From assembly GCA_963806325.1 (NCBI GenBank), contig CAWDXL010000006.1:1-61382 (forward strand): a stretch of DNA of 61,382 nt. Reading direction: 5' to 3'. Source of the stretch: Candidatus Parcubacteria bacterium. Its GTDB lineage: Bacteria; Patescibacteriota; Minisyncoccia; Phycocordibacterales; JAKAEA01. Position numbers and translations under genes: made by a program. Below the pieces are notes generated by a model, which worked only from the letters and a program-made list of their open reading frames with translations, was not told the DNA's origin and ran no database searches. This document shows positions 2,325 through 61,382 of this stretch, piece by piece. How positions within the stretch are numbered: position 1 is the stretch's first letter; each line of letters begins with the position of its first letter.

Positions 2325-3131
2325 ATGAATACAACGAGCGAAAAGATTAATACTGACCTATCTATGAAGAAGAGTATTAAAAACTTAAAACCGTCTGATG
2401 ATTTTATCAACAGAATTATCTGTGGCAGTGCTGTTGATGTTATGAAGCAAATGCCTGACGCATCTGTTGATTTGATTATCACTTCACCCCCCTATAACCT
2501 AAAAAACTCTACTGGTAATGGCATGAAAGACGGAAGGGGTGGCAAGTGGGCCAACGCAGCCCTCCAGAAGGGTTATAGCCACCACAACGACTGTATGCCT
2601 CACGACGAGTATGTTAAATGGCAAAGGGACTGTCTAACGGAAATGATGCGTCTTATTCCTAATAATGGTGCTATCTTCTACAACCACAAATGGCGTGTTC
2701 AAGGCGGCCTGTTACAAGACCGACAAGATATTGTGAATGGATTCCCTGTTAGACAGATTATCATCTGGAGGCGAAAGGGGGGTTTCAACTTTAACGCAGG
2801 ATACTTTGTGCCAACGTATGAAGTAATTTATTTAATTGCCAAACCAGAGTTTAAGTTGGTACCAAAGGCCAATGGCCATGGAGATGTTTGGGAATTTACT
2901 CAAGAGATGAATAATGAGCATCCTGCTGCTTTTCCTGTAGATTTAATTGATAGAATTGTCGGGTCAACTCATGCCAAAACCATTCTCGATCCATTCATGG
3001 GTTCCGGTACTACTGCGCTCTCGGCAATAAATTTTCAAAGAAATTATATTGGTATAGATATTTCTCCTGAATACTGTACTATGGCTGAGAAAAGAATTGA
3101 AGAACATAAGGCGCAGAATAAATTCTGGTAA
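2325..3131 (+). CDS. Beta-class N4-C/N6-A DNA methyltransferase (type II R-M)
   Basis: Catalytic TSPPY motif precedes the SAM-binding DPFMGSGTT motif; HPAAFP motif present. Confidence 0.92.
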   Translation: MNTTSEKINTDLSMKKSIKNLKPSDDFINRIICGSAVDVMKQMPDASVDLIITSPPYNLKNSTGNGMKDGRGGKWANAALQKGYSHHNDCMPHDEYVKWQRDCLTEMMRLIPNNGAIFYNHKWRVQGGLLQDRQDIVNGFPVRQIIIWRRKGGFNFNAGYFVPTYEVIYLIAKPEFKLVPKANGHGDVWEFTQEMNNEHPAAFPVDLIDRIVGSTHAKTILDPFMGSGTTALSAINFQRNYIGIDISPEYCTMAEKRIEEHKAQNKFW

Positions 3132-3135
3132 AACC

Positions 3136-3934
3136 ATGCAAAATGAACCTATAATCTACACGAAACAAGCCCTGATTCAAAAATTTAAGGAAATTGCGAC
3201 AATGGATTGGATTCCTAATGCTCGCCACAAAAATCATGGAGGTGTCGGCAACACACTGGAAGATTTGCTCGGTATAAAAGAAAACAACCTACCTATTCCT
3301 AATGCGGCAGAATGGGAACTTAAAACTCAAAGATTAGGCACAGCTTCGCTAACAACCCTTTTCCATATAGAGCCATCACCTCGAGCAATTGGTTTTATTC
3401 CGAAAGTTTTATTGCCTAAATACGGCTGGCCCCACAAAGAGGGTGGCAAGAAGTATCCAAAAAATGAAATGAGTTTCCGTCAGACTATTCACGGTTTATC
3501 CAGAAGTGACAGAGGGTTTATGGTTAAGATTGATAGAATTGAAAAGAAAATAATAATTTCATTTGATGCTTTGTCGGTTGACGTTAGACATAAAACTTGG
3601 TTGAAAGCTGTAAAAACAAAAGTAGGTTTAGGGGAGTTAAACCCACAACCTTATTGGGGTTTTGATGATTCTTGAACATAAGGCTGGAACAAAATTGCTC
3701 AACTGTTTTTATGTACAAGCAGAAGTGAAAAAGGTGCGAGGTAAAGAATTCTATAAATATACAAAAGTGATGATGCTCCAAAAGTTTAATTTTGAAGGAT
3801 TTTTGAAAGGATTAGAAGAAGCAAAAGTGCTCGTAGATTTTGATGCACGGACGGGTCATAATCACGGTACAAAATTTCGAATGAGAGAGGACGCGTTGCC
3901 AATGCTCTACGATAAAATAACTGTAATTATGTAA
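3136..3934 (+). CDS. MvaI/BcnI-family restriction endonuclease (one frameshift near 3665)
   Basis: GVGNTLEDLLGIKENN...WELKTQR and the C-terminal HNHGTKFR motif; directly follows the methyltransferase; ORFs 3097-3675 and 3662-3934 join as YWGFDD/LEHKAG. Confidence 0.85.
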
Positions 3935-4014: not shown

Positions 4015-4175
4015 ACGGTTATTTGTCGAGCGAATGCTCGGGTCCATGAAAATGGACTGGAAGTAAGGTTAAATTCCTTCACTGTGCCGCAACGGTAACG
4101 TTCCGCGATCGCAAGAGCGAATTGCGGAAACAAGTCCGGTCAGCAAATAGCCTCATCCCGAGCAGGAAATGGATC
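4015..4175 (+). promoter_or_regulatory. Cobalamin (B12) riboswitch
   Basis: Core GGAAGTAAGGTTAAATTCCTTCACTGTGCCGCAACGGTAA (4059-4098) and AAGTCCGG (4132-4139) resemble the conserved cobalamin-riboswitch blocks; closing helix GGTTATTTG (4017-4025)/CAAATAGCC (4144-4152); lies upstream of DUF4430 genes. Confidence 0.85.
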
Positions 4176-4206
4176 ATGTGTCTATTTTTATATCGTTGTA
4201 TCAACG

Positions 4207-4232
4207 AACCCTGCTCGGCAGAGGTTTTTTTA
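4207..4232 (+). terminator. Riboswitch-controlled intrinsic terminator (expression platform)
   Basis: CCCTGC-TCG-GCAG(A)GG hairpin followed by a T run, 7 nt before the ATG at 4239. Confidence 0.75.
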
Positions 4233-4238
4233 TTTTAT

Positions 4239-4814
4239 ATGAACAAAAAAATACTATATATAAGTGTCGTTGCGCTTGTGATACTTGCTGCTGCGGGAAT
4301 ATTTCTTGATAGCCACAGGGAATATCCACAGTCTGCGACGCAACAGGAGGCGATCAGTACGGCGGTTTCGGTAAATACTGGATCAACAGCATCTACAACT
4401 GCTATTTCTGAACAAAATACTTCTGGGAATCTAAAAACTCAGAGCAAAAATCAAACGCTTGCTCAGGAATCAACGCAAACATCCACCACTTCCTCGACTA
4501 CCGTTTCATCTGGCGAAAATACACATCAAATTCAAATCAGTTTTGTGGCGGGAAGCACGACATATGCCGAAAGTGTTCCTCAAGGATCGACCGCATACGA
4601 CGCGATGGCCATTCTTGCTTCAACCACACCCTCTTTTAATTTTAAAGCCGCATATTATTCAGGACTCGGTTATTTTGTTCAGGAAATTAACGGCATCAAA
4701 AATAGCAGCAGCATGTATTGGACGCTCTACATAAATGGAGCGTATTCGACGGTTGGCGCGTCGAGCTACGTGGTAAAAAATGGCGATACGGTAGAGTGGA
4801 GATTTGAAAAGTAG
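4239..4814 (+). CDS. Membrane-anchored DUF4430 (transcobalamin C-terminal-like) protein
   Basis: N-terminal TM helix, Thr/Ser-rich stalk, then STAYDAM...GYFVQEINGIKNSSSMYWTLYINGAYSTVGASSYVVKNGDTVEWRFE, the typical DUF4430 signature. Confidence 0.85.
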   Translation: MNKKILYISVVALVILAAAGIFLDSHREYPQSATQQEAISTAVSVNTGSTASTTAISEQNTSGNLKTQSKNQTLAQESTQTSTTSSTTVSSGENTHQIQISFVAGSTTYAESVPQGSTAYDAMAILASTTPSFNFKAAYYSGLGYFVQEINGIKNSSSMYWTLYINGAYSTVGASSYVVKNGDTVEWRFEK

Positions 4815-4845: not shown

Positions 4846-7170
4846 ATGAAAACACATCACATGAGAATAAAATTGATGGCAGGCAGTGCAGCTATTGTTT
4901 TAATGGCTTCAATAAACATTTTTTTGCCATTCATGCATGTGTCTGCCGATGATGCGACAACTACAGCAACGACAGCAACTACAACTATTACAGATTCTGG
5001 TGCGTCTGCTACTACGACGAGTCCAATAATTCCAGTAGATAGTGCAACAACTACCCCAGCTTTGGTTTTGGGAACAACTACCATTCCAGCTATTGCGACT
5101 ACAACGCCAGCTATTGATATAAGCACGACTACTGCGACAACTACGCTGTCTCTTGCGCCGGTTGTTGCGGCTTTTGTGAGTCCGCAAGATGTGTCTACGA
5201 GCACACCAACGACTACGCCTGTGACAAATACAGTGACTTTGAATGTCCGCTACCAGGATTCCGTTGTATTTTCCGGAACAGTGCTTCTGCCTGTTGCCAC
5301 GACCACGACGCTTAATGATTCAACCGGAACACCACACCCTATTTCGTCAGATAGTGCTCTCTATCTCTTGTCGCAAGCCGCAGCGTCCTCTACTGTATTT
5401 TCTCTAAGCGATCTTGATTATTATTCCTCCTTTGGCGAATTTTATGTCAATTGTCTTGATATAAATGCAACACCTGCAATCGCATCATCGACGGTTCATG
5501 CTTGTGCTGATTGGCAGTATGCAGTAAATAATTCCAATCCATCTGAAGGTTCTGATCAATATATAGCTGCGCCAAACGACGATATCTATTTCTACTACGG
5601 CAATCAGCGGCAATTTTCAGTTTCAGCGACGAGTACCGATACGGTGACACCGGTTACTGTCACGGCTCAAAAATATGATTATACAAACAATACATGGGTA
5701 CCACTTGCCGGAGAAGTTGTAGGCGCGACACAGCCAGATCCAAGTAATCCATGGAGCCCTCTTGTCGTGGCCACCTCAACAACCAATGCGAATGGGACAA
5801 CCACTCTCCTTATGACTGACGCCGGCGTCTACGATATCGGGCTTTCTGATGACGGTTATTATCCAACAGTAGCCGTGACTGTTGCTACTTCAACGGCAAC
5901 AACAACATTGCCAGTCGGTACATCTGGGGGTGGAGGAGGCGGCTCGACCCAATCATTATTTAATGTTTCGCAAGCACTCAGCTATCTCGCGTCAAAACAA
6001 AATGCCAACGGTTCGTTTGACGGCAGTCTCTACACCGATTGGGCGGCAATCGCGCTTGCTGCCGGCCCTCAAAGCCAGAGCAGGAGTGAAATTACAAATT
6101 ACGAGCAGTCGGCGCCAAACACAGCAGTGAGTGCGACAGATTATGAACGTCACGCAATGGCCCTTGAGGCACTCGGGATAAATCCATACACTGGAACATC
6201 TGTTAATTACATCCAAGGAATCGTCAATGATTTTGACGGCACTCAAATAGGCGATCCATCGCTCGTCAATGACGATATTTTCGCGATATTTCCCCTCCTT
6301 AAAGCTGGCTATACAATCTCCGATCCTATTATTTCAAAAGATATTCAATTTATTATTTCGCAGCAATCCGGAAATGGCTCGTGGGGAAGCATCGATCTCA
6401 CTGCTGCTGCAATTCAGGCACTGTCACAGGTGCAGTCTCTAAATGGCGTCTCTGTGGCAATGGGTAGAGCAGAAAATTATTTAAAAAGTTCGGAGACAGG
6501 CGGCGGTTTTGGTACAAGCTATGCTACAAGCTGGGCTCTCCAGGCTATTGCCGCGCTCGGCCAAAGTCCATCGCAGTGGCAGCAAGGAAGCGTCACACCG
6601 CTTTCATATCTTGCGGGGTATCAGCAGACGGACGGCGGTGTGGAGGTGAGCACGACGCCGGATGATAGCAGGGTGTGGGCGACGTCATACGCGATTCCCG
6701 CAGCACTTGGCGAATCATGGCCGGCAATGCTATCTTCATTTCCTAAATCAACTTCTTCATCAGGATCTTCCGGCAGCAGTTCGGGAACAAGTGGAACGAC
6801 AAGCACATCAACTCCGGCTGTTGTTGCAACATCTACAGTATCAACAACAAATAATGATGCCACCTCAACCCTCGCTGTGGCGCCGCGATCTCCCGTATTG
6901 CCACTGTTCGCCGGTACCCCAATAAAATTTGCGGTTAAAAATTTTCAGCATAAAAATAGTGTGTCAAAAATAACCGCTGCCAGCACATCTTCAAGTACGG
7001 CAGCAGTTAAGAGCAGTAATCAAAATTCGTCATCAACAACACCTCTTTCAAATATTGCTGCTGCTGGAGCGAGCGGGCAGGGAATTCCGTTTAAAGACAT
7101 CTCGATTGTCGGTGGAATTTCAGTGGTAGTCGCGGGGGCTTTCTATATTTATAAAATGAAATATAATTAA
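4846..7170 (+). CDS. Large surface protein: signal/TM, Thr-rich linker, DUF4430-like domain, Ig-like domain, prenyltransferase/squalene-oxidase alpha-alpha toroid, C-terminal TM anchor
   Basis: FGEFYVNCL...WQYAVNNSNPSEGSDQY...DDIYFYY (DUF4430-like); repeated QW-like motifs YLASKQNANGSF, ISQQSGNGSWG, AGYQQTDGG; C-terminal hydrophobic helix with basic tail. Confidence 0.75.
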   Translation: MKTHHMRIKLMAGSAAIVLMASINIFLPFMHVSADDATTTATTATTTITDSGASATTTSPIIPVDSATTTPALVLGTTTIPAIATTTPAIDISTTTATTTLSLAPVVAAFVSPQDVSTSTPTTTPVTNTVTLNVRYQDSVVFSGTVLLPVATTTTLNDSTGTPHPISSDSALYLLSQAAASSTVFSLSDLDYYSSFGEFYVNCLDINATPAIASSTVHACADWQYAVNNSNPSEGSDQYIAAPNDDIYFYYGNQRQFSVSATSTDTVTPVTVTAQKYDYTNNTWVPLAGEVVGATQPDPSNPWSPLVVATSTTNANGTTTLLMTDAGVYDIGLSDDGYYPTVAVTVATSTATTTLPVGTSGGGGGGSTQSLFNVSQALSYLASKQNANGSFDGSLYTDWAAIALAAGPQSQSRSEITNYEQSAPNTAVSATDYERHAMALEALGINPYTGTSVNYIQGIVNDFDGTQIGDPSLVNDDIFAIFPLLKAGYTISDPIISKDIQFIISQQSGNGSWGSIDLTAAAIQALSQVQSLNGVSVAMGRAENYLKSSETGGGFGTSYATSWALQAIAALGQSPSQWQQGSVTPLSYLAGYQQTDGGVEVSTTPDDSRVWATSYAIPAALGESWPAMLSSFPKSTSSSGSSGSSSGTSGTTSTSTPAVVATSTVSTTNNDATSTLAVAPRSPVLPLFAGTPIKFAVKNFQHKNSVSKITAASTSSSTAAVKSSNQNSSSTTPLSNIAAAGASGQGIPFKDISIVGGISVVVAGAFYIYKMKYN

Positions 7171-7183
7171 CTATCCAATATAT

Positions 7184-7756
7184 ATGTCCGTAAAAAAATC
7201 TCTCATCATTTCATTTCTTTTGGTTGTCGTCGGAGTCGCAGGGCGCTTTCTTCCGCATCTTCCAAACGCTACGCCAATCACAGCCATCGCGCTCTTTTCG
7301 GCAACATACCTAGGCCTCCGCTATTCGTGGTCTATTCTCATTGTGACTATGCTTATTACCGACGCATTTATCGGTTTCTATGATTGGAAAGTCATGGCCG
7401 CTGTCTACGGAAGCCTTATTTTGAGCGCTATAATCGGCTTATTGGTCAGGAAATATAAAACAGCAGGAACAAAGATAGTATTTGCCGGCAGTGTATTTTT
7501 TGGCACACTCGCTTCATCATTATTATTCTTTCTCATCACCAATTGGGCTGTCTGGCAGTTTGGAATGATGTATGTTCATTCATGGCAAGGTCTCATGGAA
7601 TCGTATGCGATGGCTATTCCATTCTTTAAAAATTCTCTTCTTGGCGACCTCACGTACACCGCTACGCTCTTCGGTGCATTTGAAACAGCTCGCTACGCGG
7701 TCTCTCAGAAAATAAAAATCCGCAGCGCTGTGCGGTCATTGAAAAATCAGTTCTAA
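7184..7756 (+). CDS. DUF6580-like integral membrane protein, putative ECF-type S-component (B12 uptake candidate)
   Basis: About six hydrophobic segments; RFLPHLPNATPITAIALF, SSLLFFLITNWAVW and YAMAIPFFKNSLLGDL motifs; last gene of the riboswitch operon. Confidence 0.7.
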   Translation: MSVKKSLIISFLLVVVGVAGRFLPHLPNATPITAIALFSATYLGLRYSWSILIVTMLITDAFIGFYDWKVMAAVYGSLILSAIIGLLVRKYKTAGTKIVFAGSVFFGTLASSLLFFLITNWAVWQFGMMYVHSWQGLMESYAMAIPFFKNSLLGDLTYTATLFGAFETARYAVSQKIKIRSAVRSLKNQF

Positions 7757-7801
7757 TAACAGAACATTTGAAATAAAATCGTTTTTGCTTTACACTTGAG
7801 T

Positions 7802-8320
7802 ATGGCAAAAATAACTATCTTTGGACTAGCAGGGACGGGGACAACAACGCTCGGCAAGATGCTTGCTAAAAAGCTTGAGTGTGAATTTGTGTCGACGGGC
7901 AAGATATTCCGTGCAAAAGCAGCGTCGCTCAGCCTCGATCTCTATCAGTTTGAAAAGCTATGTAATGAAGATTATAGCTACGATCGGGCTATTGAAGATG
8001 AAATTGGCTTATATGGCAAACAGCACGACAATTTTGTTCTAGAAAGCCGGCTTGGGTGGTATTCAATCCCAGATTCTTTTAAGATAAAAGTGATTTGTGA
8101 TTTTGAAACTCGTATCAAGCGTGTGGCTGATCGTGACAATATTCCGTACAAGGAAGCGGAGGTAAAAACTCTTTTTAGAGAAAATTCGCACATTGAGCGG
8201 TATGCCGCAAATTATGGTATTACCGATTTTGGTGCCGATCATTATTTTGATGTGATTATTGATTCTACTGAAAAAAACCCGGAGCATATGCTGCAGATTG
8301 TGGTTGATTCATTGCGCTAA
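7802..8320 (+). CDS. cmk: Cytidylate kinase, archaeal-type (AAA family)
   Basis: GLAGTGTTT P-loop, STGKIFR, DRAIED, ESRLG and RIKRVADRD motifs; own promoter-like TTGAAA-17-TACACT just upstream. Confidence 0.75.
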   Translation: MAKITIFGLAGTGTTTLGKMLAKKLECEFVSTGKIFRAKAASLSLDLYQFEKLCNEDYSYDRAIEDEIGLYGKQHDNFVLESRLGWYSIPDSFKIKVICDFETRIKRVADRDNIPYKEAEVKTLFRENSHIERYAANYGITDFGADHYFDVIIDSTEKNPEHMLQIVVDSLR

Positions 8321-8864: not shown

Positions 8865-10064
8865 GTGGGAGAAATAAATAAGCGTAATAGACGGATTTTG
8901 ATACTTGTTTTTATGTGTATCGGTATTTTTGCAGCGGTGAATATTATTATCGGGATTGTTAAGAAAACATTCGACAGTTCTTCGTCAATGCAGCGATATG
9001 GCCAAAATAATTTTCCACAATCAGCGGTGTTTTGGCCGGAACACAACAACGAAAATCTTCTCTCGCTTATTATTGAGCCTCGCGACGGTATTGCGCCTGT
9101 GCTCTCGTTGATACAACGTGCTTCTACATCAATTGATCTTGTGATGTACGAGCTTGATGATGCACAGATAGAACAGGCACTGGCTCGTGCACAGTCGCGC
9201 GGCGTGGCTGTGCGGGTCATTCTTAACCAGGGTTATTACGGACAAACAGCTTCTAATAATTCTGCTTTTTCAAATCAATCGGCGTATGAATATCTGAAAG
9301 ATCATAACGTGTCTGTTGAGTGGGCACCCTCTTACTTTGTTTTGACGCATCAGAAGTCTCTCGTTGTCGACAGCGCTCAGCTGCTCGTTATGACATTCAA
9401 TATGACGCCGAAATATTATCCTTCGGCCCGGGACTTTGGTATTGTCGACCAGGATCACCTTGATGTATCGGCTGCCGATCTCATTGATGCCGACTGGCAG
9501 GAAAGCTCCGCATCTCCATCGCCTGCATTACAAGGGGATAATCTTATTTGGAGTCCTGGTTCGGAAAATGAAATGCTTTACCTTATTGAAAATGCCACCT
9601 CCTCGCTCTCTATTTATAATGAAGAAATAAATGATCCTGCACTTGTGAATGCACTTGAGCTGGCTGCAGAGCGCGGAGTGGATGTAAAAGTTGATATGAC
9701 GTATGAGACCGCTTGGAAACCTATATTTATCGAGCTCGTCTCCGCTGGTGTGCATGTGCGCACGTATGCCGCCCATGCATCAATCTATATCCACGCCAAA
9801 ATGATCATTGTTGATAATTCAGCAGCATTTATCGGTTCGGAAAATTTTTCTGCTTCGTCGCTCGACGACAATCGCGAGCTTGGTATTGTGTTTGATGATC
9901 AAAAAATCATTGATTCTCTAAAATCTGTTTTTGATGCCGACTGGCAAAAAGCGGAGAGTGTTCGTTGGTACATAAAACTATTTCCAGCCTACCCAGCGGT
10001 CTATTTCTGGCTATTGTTTTTTATGAGTTCTTCGTCAATTCGGCGCGGCGCATCAGCAGGATGA
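8865..10064 (+). CDS. Membrane-anchored phospholipase D-family protein (true 3' end may be near 9975)
   Basis: Two HKD motifs (HQKSLVVD, HAKMIIVD), GSENFS and NRELG; N-terminal TM. The C-terminal tail overlaps the convergent gene. Confidence 0.85.
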   Translation: MGEINKRNRRILILVFMCIGIFAAVNIIIGIVKKTFDSSSSMQRYGQNNFPQSAVFWPEHNNENLLSLIIEPRDGIAPVLSLIQRASTSIDLVMYELDDAQIEQALARAQSRGVAVRVILNQGYYGQTASNNSAFSNQSAYEYLKDHNVSVEWAPSYFVLTHQKSLVVDSAQLLVMTFNMTPKYYPSARDFGIVDQDHLDVSAADLIDADWQESSASPSPALQGDNLIWSPGSENEMLYLIENATSSLSIYNEEINDPALVNALELAAERGVDVKVDMTYETAWKPIFIELVSAGVHVRTYAAHASIYIHAKMIIVDNSAAFIGSENFSASSLDDNRELGIVFDDQKIIDSLKSVFDADWQKAESVRWYIKLFPAYPAVYFWLLFFMSSSSIRRGASAG

Positions 10065-12977: not shown

Positions 12978-13430
12978 ATGAATACAAAATACGTTATTGG
13001 CATTATCGTGGCTGCGATTGTCCTTATTGCAGCTTTTGTTTTTGTTAATGAAAAAATGAACGACACGAGCTCCTCCGGCGTTGATCTCACAAGTTTTGCA
13101 ATGTGCTTGAAAAGCAGCGGCACCATTATGTATGGCGCATTCTGGTGTCCTCACTGTGCTGCTACGAAAAAGATGTTTGGTGCAGCGGCGGAGGATCTTC
13201 CATATCATGAATGCTCAACGCCTGATGGGAATAGTCAGCTTCCTGATTGTACAGCCAAGGGTGTGAAAGGCTATCCGACATGGGTATTTCCTGATGGTAC
13301 ACGGCTCCAGGGTGAAACAACATTGCAGGTACTTTCACAGCGCTCCGGCTGCGCGCTTCCTGCGGGTATTGCTGGTGCGGCATTGCCGACCGCTTCAACG
13401 ACCGCATCGTCTTCGAGCGCCGCCGAGTAA
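12978..13430 (+). CDS. Membrane-anchored thioredoxin-like protein (CPHC)
   Basis: MYGAFWCPHC, YHECS and C..KGVKGYPTW motifs; N-terminal TM. Confidence 0.8.
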   Translation: MNTKYVIGIIVAAIVLIAAFVFVNEKMNDTSSSGVDLTSFAMCLKSSGTIMYGAFWCPHCAATKKMFGAAAEDLPYHECSTPDGNSQLPDCTAKGVKGYPTWVFPDGTRLQGETTLQVLSQRSGCALPAGIAGAALPTASTTASSSSAAE

Positions 13431-13459: not shown

Positions 13460-14062
13460 ATGACCCCTCTTGTTACTTCAGTTACAATGATTTCATCGGT
13501 GCTTACCGTTTGCGCCGATCTCGCGGTGGTCTGCGCCATTATCTTTTTTGTCGCAAGTTTAGCTTCTCACTCAAGCAGTAAAATAAATCGTTGGCTTGCG
13601 GTCTATGAATCGTATGCTCTGATCGCGAGTTTCGTCATAAGCCTCGGCGGCGTCCTTGGCAGTCTGTTCTATTCTGAGATTGCCGGCTTTGCTCCGTGTG
13701 AACTGTGCTGGTGGCAGCGCATCTTTCTTTTTCCGCAATTTATTATCTTAGGACTTGCGGTGTGGTATAACCATAGTTCAAAGCGTGTGCCTAAAGACAC
13801 CGAGCGGCATGTTGAGTATTTCGCACTTCTTACAAGCCTCGCACTTTCTCTCATTGGCGGCGCGTATGCCTTGTATCATTCGTATGGCCTACTCATAAAC
13901 CCTGACGTCTTGCCCGCTTGTGCTGCGGTAGGTGTTTCGTGTTCGAAACTCTATTTCCTTTATTTTGGATATGTTGCAATCCCTACAATGTCGCTCACGC
14001 TCTTTCTCATGCTTCTTGCCAATGCCGCTTTGCATTTTAGAGGCAGAAAATATCGTACATAA
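13460..14062 (+). CDS. dsbB: Disulfide bond formation protein B family
   Basis: GSLFYSEIAGFAPCELCWWQRI and a second Cys pair (PAC...SCS); four TMs. Confidence 0.85.
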   Translation: MTPLVTSVTMISSVLTVCADLAVVCAIIFFVASLASHSSSKINRWLAVYESYALIASFVISLGGVLGSLFYSEIAGFAPCELCWWQRIFLFPQFIILGLAVWYNHSSKRVPKDTERHVEYFALLTSLALSLIGGAYALYHSYGLLINPDVLPACAAVGVSCSKLYFLYFGYVAIPTMSLTLFLMLLANAALHFRGRKYRT

Positions 14063-58517: not shown

Positions 58518-58869
58518 GGCTCTTATCCCTGAAATTATGTTAAACACACTAAATCACAAGCGGATATAGCAAGCTTCTCTATAAAAAAGGCTTACTACTC
58601 CGCGCAAGCGGTTTTTTGTTTTAATTTCAGACCGACCGTAACTTAAAAATATCCTCGCAGTCTCGATTTTCGTCGGACTGCATTAGAAGGATCATTCTGT
58701 CGCAGCACACAAAACTTTTTTCTGGACTAATAAATGGTTCAGAGAGGGTCTTTTCAAGTGTTGCAGACAGAGTAGGTAAACAAACAAAAACAATAAATTG
58801 TTATATGTTAGAAAATGGATTCTATGTAACAGAGTAAAACGATATGTGGTTCTTACATTTCCTAATAGG

Positions 58870-61382
<2,513 letters not shown>

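Follow-up and report, generated by a model that had tools for sequence, protein, structure and literature searches.

The stretch of DNA analysed here, called the window below, covers positions 1 to 61,382 (forward strand) of contig CAWDXL010000006.1 from the Candidatus Parcubacteria assembly GCA_963806325.1, a genome assembly of 921 kb that is 85% complete and is classified in GTDB as Bacteria; Patescibacteriota; Minisyncoccia; Phycocordibacterales; JAKAEA01. Our subject is the open reading frame (ORF) at 4846 to 7170 on the plus strand, which encodes a 774-amino-acid (774-aa) surface protein composed of an SLBB domain, a beta-sandwich, a glycine hinge and an alpha/alpha toroid, and the genes that accompany it, which together look like a system for the uptake of vitamin B12. 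The gene order in the window is a class II ribonucleotide reductase gene (nrdJ), an inserted restriction-modification pair, a cobalamin riboswitch, a gene for a small SLBB protein, the 774-aa gene, a DUF6580 gene and a gene for cytidine monophosphate (CMP) kinase.

The 774-aa protein begins with a signal peptide or N-terminal anchor (residues 1 to 34, ending in VSA) and a threonine-rich stalk (residues 35 to 124), both read from hydropathy and composition at 4846 to 5217; 71% of the 90 stalk residues are serine, threonine, alanine or proline. It is followed by the SLBB/DUF4430 beta-grasp domain (residues 125 to 251; 5218 to 5598), an immunoglobulin (Ig)-like beta-sandwich spacer (residues 255 to 347; 5608 to 5886), a flexible hinge at 5887 to 5964 that contains GTSGGGGGGS (residues 358 to 367) and the alpha/alpha toroid (residues 374 to 628; 5965 to 6729). 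A stalk rich in serine and threonine (S/T-rich; residues 629 to 751) then leads to a C-terminal transmembrane anchor (residues 752 to 768, with a hydropathy of 2.18 over its 17 residues) and a final KMKYN, all at 6730 to 7149. The database gene call for this ORF begins at M11 and gives 764 aa. Among 120 homologues, a hydrophobic N-terminal segment occurs in 111 and a hydrophobic C-terminal anchor in 57, and in the terms of Burroughs et al. (PMC1796856) the protein is a secreted or anchored SLBB-toroid fusion. The full AlphaFold2 model, based on an alignment of 92 sequences, has a mean predicted local distance difference test (pLDDT) score of 92.9 with high confidence in all three domains; the glycine linker is the sole low-confidence stretch, with pLDDT below 50 at model residues 229 to 239. 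Because more than 1000 homologues span 97 to 100% of the three-domain core, the layout is not a matter of chance. The initial annotation had proposed this succession of beta domain, sandwich, GTSGGGGGGS and toroid, and it was borne out by Pfam, by AlphaFold2 and by the sequence itself.

In a six-frame search of the genome the fused beta domain reached 25.5 bits with the Pfam model DUF4430, above the cut-off. The same model was matched by 57 of the 68 family members scanned with Pfam (best E 4e-13), and the profile of the fused domain aligned to that of the small SLBB family encoded just upstream (hhalign 96.6%, E 6e-10). Judged by these matches, the fused domain is an SLBB beta-grasp of the transcobalamin clade (PF14478). 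AlphaFold2 gives the region (125 to 251) a pLDDT of about 90 to 98, and its conserved motifs include NWQYxVNG and PxVGxDxY. C203 and C220 (C79 and C96 in the alignment) are invariant, exactly two cysteines being present in 91 of the 92 sequences used for motif and cysteine counts, and this pair is compatible with a putative extracytoplasmic disulfide. The sandwich that follows is all beta, with seven predicted strands and a pLDDT of about 88 to 96; no Pfam family was found on it in the Pfam scan, and against the PDB it returned a weak cohesin-like match only (E 0.1).

The toroid modelled alone obtained a pLDDT of 96 and a predicted template modelling score (pTM) of 0.93. Its conserved motifs are DYERHAMAL, xNDDIF, SxDxTAAAIQAL, GGFGxSxxTSWALQA and RxWAT, and N475, D476 and D477 show little or no variation. 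In a toroid-only Foldseek search the fold resembled two groups to about the same degree: class II terpene cyclases (E 1e-6 to 9e-5, query-normalised TM-score (TMq) 0.60 to 0.67), whose scores were slightly better, and transcobalamin, intrinsic factor and haptocorrin (E 4e-5 to 2e-4, TMq 0.53 to 0.66). The Pfam families distributed over the 68 members were similarly mixed: SQHop_cyclase_C in 67, Cobalamin_bind in 47, TED_complement in 36 and Prenyltrans in 24. Cobalamin_bind exceeded its gathering score in 6 of 8 homologues scanned individually and was the top family in 4; its match is centred on profile positions 204 to 253, which by consensus reading correspond to the GGFGNSFSTSWALQA segment (GGFGxSxxTSWALQA). 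The sequence likeness to cyclases sits in the repeated QW-like segments. No D.DD, DDxx[DE] or CxEQ motif occurs anywhere in the 774-aa protein. The family motif is xNDDIF; a literal D.DD is present in 18 of the 92 sequences, mostly as DNDDIF, and its first aspartate is not conserved, while the CxEQ thioester motif is found in none of the 92. The toroid thus belongs to a superfamily that holds both the cyclases and the B12 carriers, and taken alone it is assignable to neither.

These results bear on two statements of the initial annotation. It had described a transcobalamin-like domain pair in reversed order with a sandwich between the halves, and the two modules are indeed homologous to, or folded like, both halves of transcobalamin. 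It had also named an alignment to catalytic terpene cyclases with an intact DxDD, combined with no predicted contact to either beta domain, as the observation that would speak against such a pair: the alignment was found, the toroid matching class II cyclases at least as well as transcobalamin, and the D.DD was absent.

Upstream of the two SLBB genes lies a divergent cobalamin riboswitch aptamer of the adenosylcobalamin (AdoCbl)-II type with an enlarged variable stem (about 4036 to 4165, plus strand), recognised by a sub-threshold Rfam match, by alignment and by our covariance model R1. The aptamer core and the 'AAGTCCG' box align with those of relatives that score above the Rfam threshold, and an outer pairing GCUCGGG/CCCGAGC can be read from the sequence. 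In five of eight related loci, the small SLBB gene is immediately preceded by an Rfam AdoCbl or AdoCbl-II element above threshold. R1 was built from five rows, four Rfam-positive related loci and the window, so that its 63.6 bits at the window aptamer refer to one of its own training rows. At E <= 4e-4 it matched 64 of 85 sources, or 62 of 83 distinct loci, the five training rows being among these sources; every match lies on the coding strand just upstream of the pair formed by the small SLBB gene and the 774-aa-type gene. The 83 loci are those of our neighbourhood census (80 GTDB genomes, two additional metagenome contigs and the window). A wider sample of the phylum comprised 301 evenly drawn genomes, of which 21 had a toroid match at E <= 1e-20; 16 of their loci were examined with our own hidden Markov models, R1 and Pfam, and the R1 element was present in 8 of these more distant loci as well.

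The expression platform appears to be a terminator-like long hairpin followed by U7 (4149 to 4232, plus strand) in the minimum-free-energy fold, and it overlaps the 3' strand of the aptamer outer helix. The minimum-free-energy fold of 4030 to 4245 has a z-score of -5.3 relative to shuffled sequences. We also observed that UCCCGAGCAGG, located 3' of the aptamer, is shared by divergent loci (window 4149 to 4232; L040, L041, L061), and that in the window it can pair alternatively with 4035 to 4042, in the outer helix of the aptamer, or with CCUGCUCGG at 4210 to 4218, before the U7. On a naive reading the terminator competes with the outer helix, an arrangement at odds with the usual OFF logic.

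The gene at 4239 to 4814 (plus strand, ATG at 4239) encodes a small membrane-tethered SLBB/DUF4430 protein with an N-terminal transmembrane helix, an S/T-rich linker and a domain of the transcobalamin beta type. The earlier reading of this gene as a DUF4430 protein was confirmed by Pfam (E 6.3e-15, 55.8 bits, where the fused SLBB reached 21.9), and its product matches haptocorrin (4kki). The profile of the small SLBB family finds significant PDB matches only among the beta domains of transcobalamin, intrinsic factor and haptocorrin (E 4e-4 to 0.03), and 74 of 77 family members carry a hydrophobic N-terminal segment. Of 79 loci with the reversed domain order, 74 carry this gene at position -1 and in the same orientation, and its regular retention is evidence that the fused SLBB does not replace it.

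Downstream, at 7184 to 7756 (plus strand), lies the gene for a polytopic membrane protein of the DUF6580 family (Pfam E 2e-40), which resembles an S-component and is presumed to be a B12 permease. An S-component-like membrane protein is encoded in 41 of the 83 loci, as DUF6580 in 13 and as a family that matches ECF-ribofla_trS in 28. Homology between the two families is supported by hhalign (88%, E 3e-6), and no locus contains both. Their joint profile found as its best PDB match the 182-aa membrane chain of 6FNP (E 3.7e-6), the B12 transporter ECF-CbrT of the energy-coupling factor (ECF) type (PMC5997447); from its size we take this chain to be CbrT. A class II ribonucleotide reductase is encoded within 8 kb in 28 of 83 loci, typically at position -3, and a PduO-type cobalamin adenosyltransferase in 17 of 83, typically at position -2. 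In the window the class II, adenosylcobalamin-dependent reductase gene nrdJ occupies 1 to 2081 on the minus strand, spread over several frames and truncated where the contig begins; tblastn with intact relatives gave E 1e-112 with high-scoring segment pairs in frames -2 and -3. A search of the genome with TIGR02504 (NrdJ_Z) gave no match; nrdJ was detected by tblastn with the reductase of a relative, in several frames, both where the window begins and where contig C16 ends. The last approximately 1070 nt of C16 carry nrdJ sequence too, and the first 824 nt of the window overlap that contig end with 88% identity and with indels. The fragmentation of nrdJ may reflect noisy contig ends rather than a true pseudogene, and the enzyme is the likely consumer of imported B12. 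A PduO gene was found in the same genome. Judged by two markers, CobS and CbiC, and in a genome that is 85% complete, the host would be an organism without B12 biosynthesis.

Three layouts share this operon context among the 16 distant loci: toroid-only, SLBB-first and toroid-first. Toroid-only proteins of 383 to 523 aa lie beside a small SLBB gene in seven loci. SLBB-first fusions occur in four; L105 can be added, with a long N-terminal region in which no SLBB was matched. The canonical order, toroid followed by DUF4430 and usually by a C-terminal Ig-like domain, is found in four (L098 to L101). In two of these four canonical-order loci the small SLBB gene is missing and the protein stands alone behind the riboswitch; the proteins at L098:4776-6743 and L100:4101-6182 lie directly behind a cobalamin riboswitch, with an Ig-like C-terminal domain in L100, and no small SLBB or DUF6580 gene was found within 5 kb in either. 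In a maximum-likelihood tree of 41 toroid domains, the 774-aa protein falls into a clade of 26 SLBB-first proteins with a support of 97/96; a second, small SLBB-first clade (100/99) stands apart from the main one, this separation being weakly supported. The tree requires 5 changes of layout, compared with a mean of 11.4 for shuffled labels. Three layouts thus share one operon context, which shows that domain order in Patescibacteria is plastic; the rarity of layout changes and the well-supported clade indicate that the reversed order is old and stably inherited and is not a local accident. The split, toroid-only versions further imply that toroid and SLBB can function on different polypeptides, which makes pairing in trans feasible.

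According to the above analysis, we consider that the 774-aa protein is probably a cell-surface capture protein for corrinoids (B12) in a member of the Patescibacteria (Candidate Phyla Radiation, CPR) that is unable to make B12. The B12 connection of the operon is strong, and it rests on context, namely the riboswitch, the CbrT-like permease and the NrdJ and PduO neighbours. In the proposed mechanism, the SLBB and toroid unit would be held off the membrane on S/T-rich stalks, with the rigid sandwich and the glycine hinge between the modules, and the 774-aa gene would be co-transcribed under the AdoCbl riboswitch with the membrane-tethered SLBB paralogue and the CbrT-like S-component DUF6580. 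B12 as the ligand, its sandwiching between toroid and SLBB and the order of hand-off are the parts that we infer: B12 would be trapped between the toroid and an SLBB domain in the fashion of transcobalamin, would then be handed to the small SLBB protein and from there to DUF6580, and after import would be converted by the PduO-type transferase into the adenosyl form that the class II ribonucleotide reductase uses.

Several observations weigh against this interpretation. At the level of the toroid, the family profile found its best PDB matches in squalene-hopene cyclase (E 2e-8) and drimenyl-diphosphate synthase (E 8e-7) and no transcobalamin chain at E <= 1, so that the link between toroid and transcobalamin rests on Foldseek, on Pfam and on the SLBB domain; Cobalamin_bind (PF01122) itself was not matched by the 774-aa protein at E <= 0.01. 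The fused beta domain scored 21.9 bits with DUF4430 in hmmscan (E 2.5e-4), below the cut-off of 23.8, and the full AlphaFold2 model has a pTM of 0.65. The match to Rfam RF01689 on 4043 to 4117 reached 27.4 bits against a gathering score of 36.5, with an E of 2.7e-4 for the searched stretch. Across nrdJ only short minus-strand ORFs are open, and the gene is fragmented. The genome is 85% complete, so that the absence of CbiQ/EcfT, CobS and CbiC from the assembly, in itself in favour of the interpretation, is provisional. Finally, B12 binding by bacterial SLBB-toroid proteins is a computational prediction, and the split alpha/beta pair of Lactobacillus sakei has been tied by its authors to heme uptake (bioRxiv 10.1101/864751).

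How the ligand would be enclosed can be pictured in more than one way. We slightly favour a clamp that closes in cis through the glycine hinge, with the small SLBB protein as the shuttle to DUF6580, because the fused SLBB is strongly conserved and the hinge is present. It is also conceivable, as a tentative alternative, that the functional pair is formed in trans by the toroid of the 774-aa protein and the small SLBB protein encoded upstream; the fused SLBB, together with the sandwich, would then be an extra station, for example for first capture or for contact with a host surface. In 7 of the 16 loci a toroid-only protein has a small SLBB gene as its neighbour, so that pairing in trans is the sole option there, and separate alpha and beta proteins have been proposed to pair in L. 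sakei (bioRxiv 10.1101/864751). Moreover, the small SLBB is retained in 74 of 79 reversed-order loci and missing in 2 of 4 canonical-order ones, although the latter sample amounts to only four loci, and it fits DUF4430 and transcobalamin far better than the fused SLBB does (55.8 versus 21.9 bits). Such a division of labour has to be set against the strong conservation of the fused SLBB across the 97/96 clade, with its invariant cysteine pair, NWQYxVNG and PxVGxDxY, and against the glycine hinge, which would permit closure within the 774-aa protein. A more speculative and rather unlikely variant combines both arrangements in a two-station relay that has no animal counterpart: the toroid would clamp alternately with its own SLBB and with the tethered small SLBB, and this exchange of domains would pass B12 to DUF6580 acting as a solitary S-component independent of an ECF module. 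If that were true, the reversed order and the Ig spacer would be adaptations for hand-over, and the operon would be a route by which episymbionts take B12 from their surroundings or hosts for their only route to deoxyribonucleotides.

Beyond the geometry of the clamp, the ligand and the fold itself have been weighed. That the same surface-capture system serves another tetrapyrrole or corrinoid, such as heme, cobinamide or other cobamides, seems improbable. The linkage of the L. sakei ECF operon, with its separate transcobalamin-like alpha and beta proteins, to heme uptake (bioRxiv 10.1101/864751), the transport of cobinamide by ECF-CbrT in addition to B12 (PMC5997447) and the distinct metabolite that Burroughs et al. 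left open for some lineages (PMC1796856) would agree with it; the cobalamin riboswitches upstream in most loci, the neighbouring AdoCbl-dependent reductase and cobalamin adenosyltransferase, and the lack of a CobS in the assembly that could complete cobinamide salvage argue for B12 instead. We regard it as very improbable that the toroid is a surface-displayed enzyme of the class II terpene-cyclase or prenyltransferase type, or one that modifies corrinoids, using the NDD acids. The profile and Foldseek searches both rank squalene-hopene cyclase and drimenyl-diphosphate synthase highest, N475, D476 and D477 are near-invariant, a literal D.DD appears in 18 of 92 homologues, and the NDD would fall near D303 of SsDMS, a residue mutated in deposited structures, when the alignment is extrapolated beyond the ungapped stretch aligned by HMMER. 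Nevertheless, the 774-aa protein contains neither D.DD nor DDxx[DE] and the first aspartate of the motif is not conserved, so the catalytic terpene-cyclase reading is not supported; the cyclase likeness is carried by the QW-like repeat segments, the single toroid sits on an extracellular stalk with a B12-type SLBB fused to it, and nothing in the riboswitch or the B12 neighbourhood provides an isoprenoid context. Least credible of all is an alpha2-macroglobulin- or complement-like thioester-containing domain (TED) protein with a macroglobulin-type sandwich, acting as a protease trap or adhesin. The whole-model Foldseek search did place C4, A2ML1, C3 and A2M at the top (E 4e-7 to 1e-5), and TED_complement is weakly matched in 36 of 68 members; yet CxEQ is missing from the 774-aa protein and from all 92 sequences, the global superpositions are poor (TMq 0.21 to 0.36, rmsd 21 to 35 Å), and with the toroid alone TED structures drop behind cyclases and transcobalamin (E above 2e-3), on which grounds this reading was rejected.

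The animal B12 carriers were compared through PDB 2bb6, 2pmv, 3kq4 and 4kki and Pfam PF01122 and PF14478. Transcobalamin, intrinsic factor and haptocorrin likewise unite an alpha/alpha toroid and an SLBB in one secreted chain; their toroids superpose at TMq 0.53 to 0.66, their beta domains are matched by the neighbouring small SLBB family, and GGFGxSxxTSWALQA matches Cobalamin_bind positions of about 204 to 253 in homologues. However, sequence identity is 11 to 14%, and in the animal proteins the toroid precedes the SLBB with a short linker, whereas here the order is reversed with a sandwich and a glycine hinge in between. The 774-aa protein also differs in being membrane-anchored on S/T-rich stalks and accompanied by a second SLBB protein, and its B12 binding is predicted. 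The class II terpene cyclases (1gsz/2sqc; 7xq4/8zg0; MstE 6sbf) share the alpha/alpha toroid superfamily and the QW-like repeats; in contrast to them, the 774-aa protein lacks DxDD, is extracellular and SLBB-fused, and has no isoprenoid gene context.

Closer counterparts exist among bacteria. Burroughs, Balaji, Iyer and Aravind defined the SLBB superfamily in 2007 and described bacterial SLBB-toroid fusions with the toroid at either the N or the C terminus (C-terminal in the Bacillus type), fusions to Ig folds and a paralogous SLBB gene in the operon, in hosts without B12 synthesis, for which B12 scavenging was predicted (PMC1796856). The order SLBB to toroid, the signal peptide, the Ig fusions and the SLBB paralogue all recur here, the Bacillus type having been compared by its description. 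Unlike those examples, which come from Firmicutes and archaea with CbiO/CbiQ (ECF) neighbours, the present system belongs to Patescibacteria, has DUF6580 next to it and no detected EcfT, and its riboswitch control and its linkage to NrdJ and PduO are documented here. In L. sakei, a beta-like protein (Lsa1839) and an alpha-like protein (Lsa1840) are encoded in the ECF operon lsa1836-1840, for which the authors argue a role in heme uptake (bioRxiv 10.1101/864751). The likeness lies in extracellular transcobalamin-alpha-like and -beta-like modules next to an S-component and in a proposed hand-over of a tetrapyrrole; the modules of L. sakei are carried on separate chains, as in the toroid-only Patescibacteria, and accompany a full ECF module. 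The cluster nrdJ-cbrS-cbrT-pduO of L. delbrueckii (PMC5997447) also keeps NrdJ, PduO and an S-component together, and a chain of 6FNP is the closest solved relative of the DUF6580/ECF-S-like family. ECF-CbrT, however, works with EcfAA'T, none of which was found in this genome, and no transcobalamin-like surface proteins appear in PMC5997447. Our search of the open-access literature found no paper on the 774-aa protein family in CPR, on DUF6580 or on the riboswitch control. The architecture in both orders and the B12 role were already predicted in 2007 (PMC1796856), and no new principle is claimed; what is added is the census of riboswitches and gene contexts, the assignment of the neighbouring DUF6580 protein as CbrT-like and the occurrence of three layouts in one operon context.

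The surroundings of the operon showed some further features. The restriction-modification pair between nrdJ and the riboswitch (window 2325 to 3934, plus strand) has a lower GC content (0.38) and consists of an N4/N6 DNA methyltransferase gene (2325 to 3131) and an MvaI/BcnI-type endonuclease represented by two overlapping ORFs (3097 to 3675 and 3662 to 3934); the two ORFs correspond to the N- and C-terminal portions of the Pfam model, pointing to a frameshift or an assembly error. On the other side, the archaeal-type CMP kinase gene (7796 to 8320, plus strand; TIGR02173 E 3e-27, 95.6 bits, cut-off 102.1) begins 39 nt after DUF6580 and may or may not share its transcript. A membrane-anchored protein with two phospholipase D (PLD)-like (HKD) domains, encoded at 8865 to 10064 (plus strand), resembles cardiolipin synthase or a phospholipase D-type nuclease. 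Farther downstream, the gene for a thioredoxin-like membrane protein (12978 to 13430, plus strand) adjoins that for a DsbB-like protein (13460 to 14062, plus strand); among the 83 loci, 16 and 14, respectively, have such genes no more than 8 kb from the B12 operon, and the pair is consistent with oxidative folding of surface proteins that have the invariant SLBB cysteine pair. A gene with an ArsR-type helix-turn-helix takes the place of DUF6580 at position +1 in 10 loci (L004, L041 and eight others), and another 10 have a nearby gene resembling F420-0:gamma-glutamyl ligase, in most cases immediately downstream and in opposite orientation. A 23S rRNA gene at 58864 to 61382 (plus strand) is cut by the window end.

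Taken as a B12 capture system, the operon provides a candidate function for three poorly annotated families, which are the proteins labelled 'prenyltransferase/squalene oxidase repeat protein', the DUF4430 proteins and DUF6580. The presence of three layouts in one operon context amounts to a natural experiment on domain order in a two-domain ligand clamp, and this variety bears on the proposed bacterial origin of the animal B12 carriers. For the organisms themselves, the findings suggest that these ultra-small bacteria depend on B12 through their class II ribonucleotide reductase and that the vitamin is supplied by neighbours or hosts.

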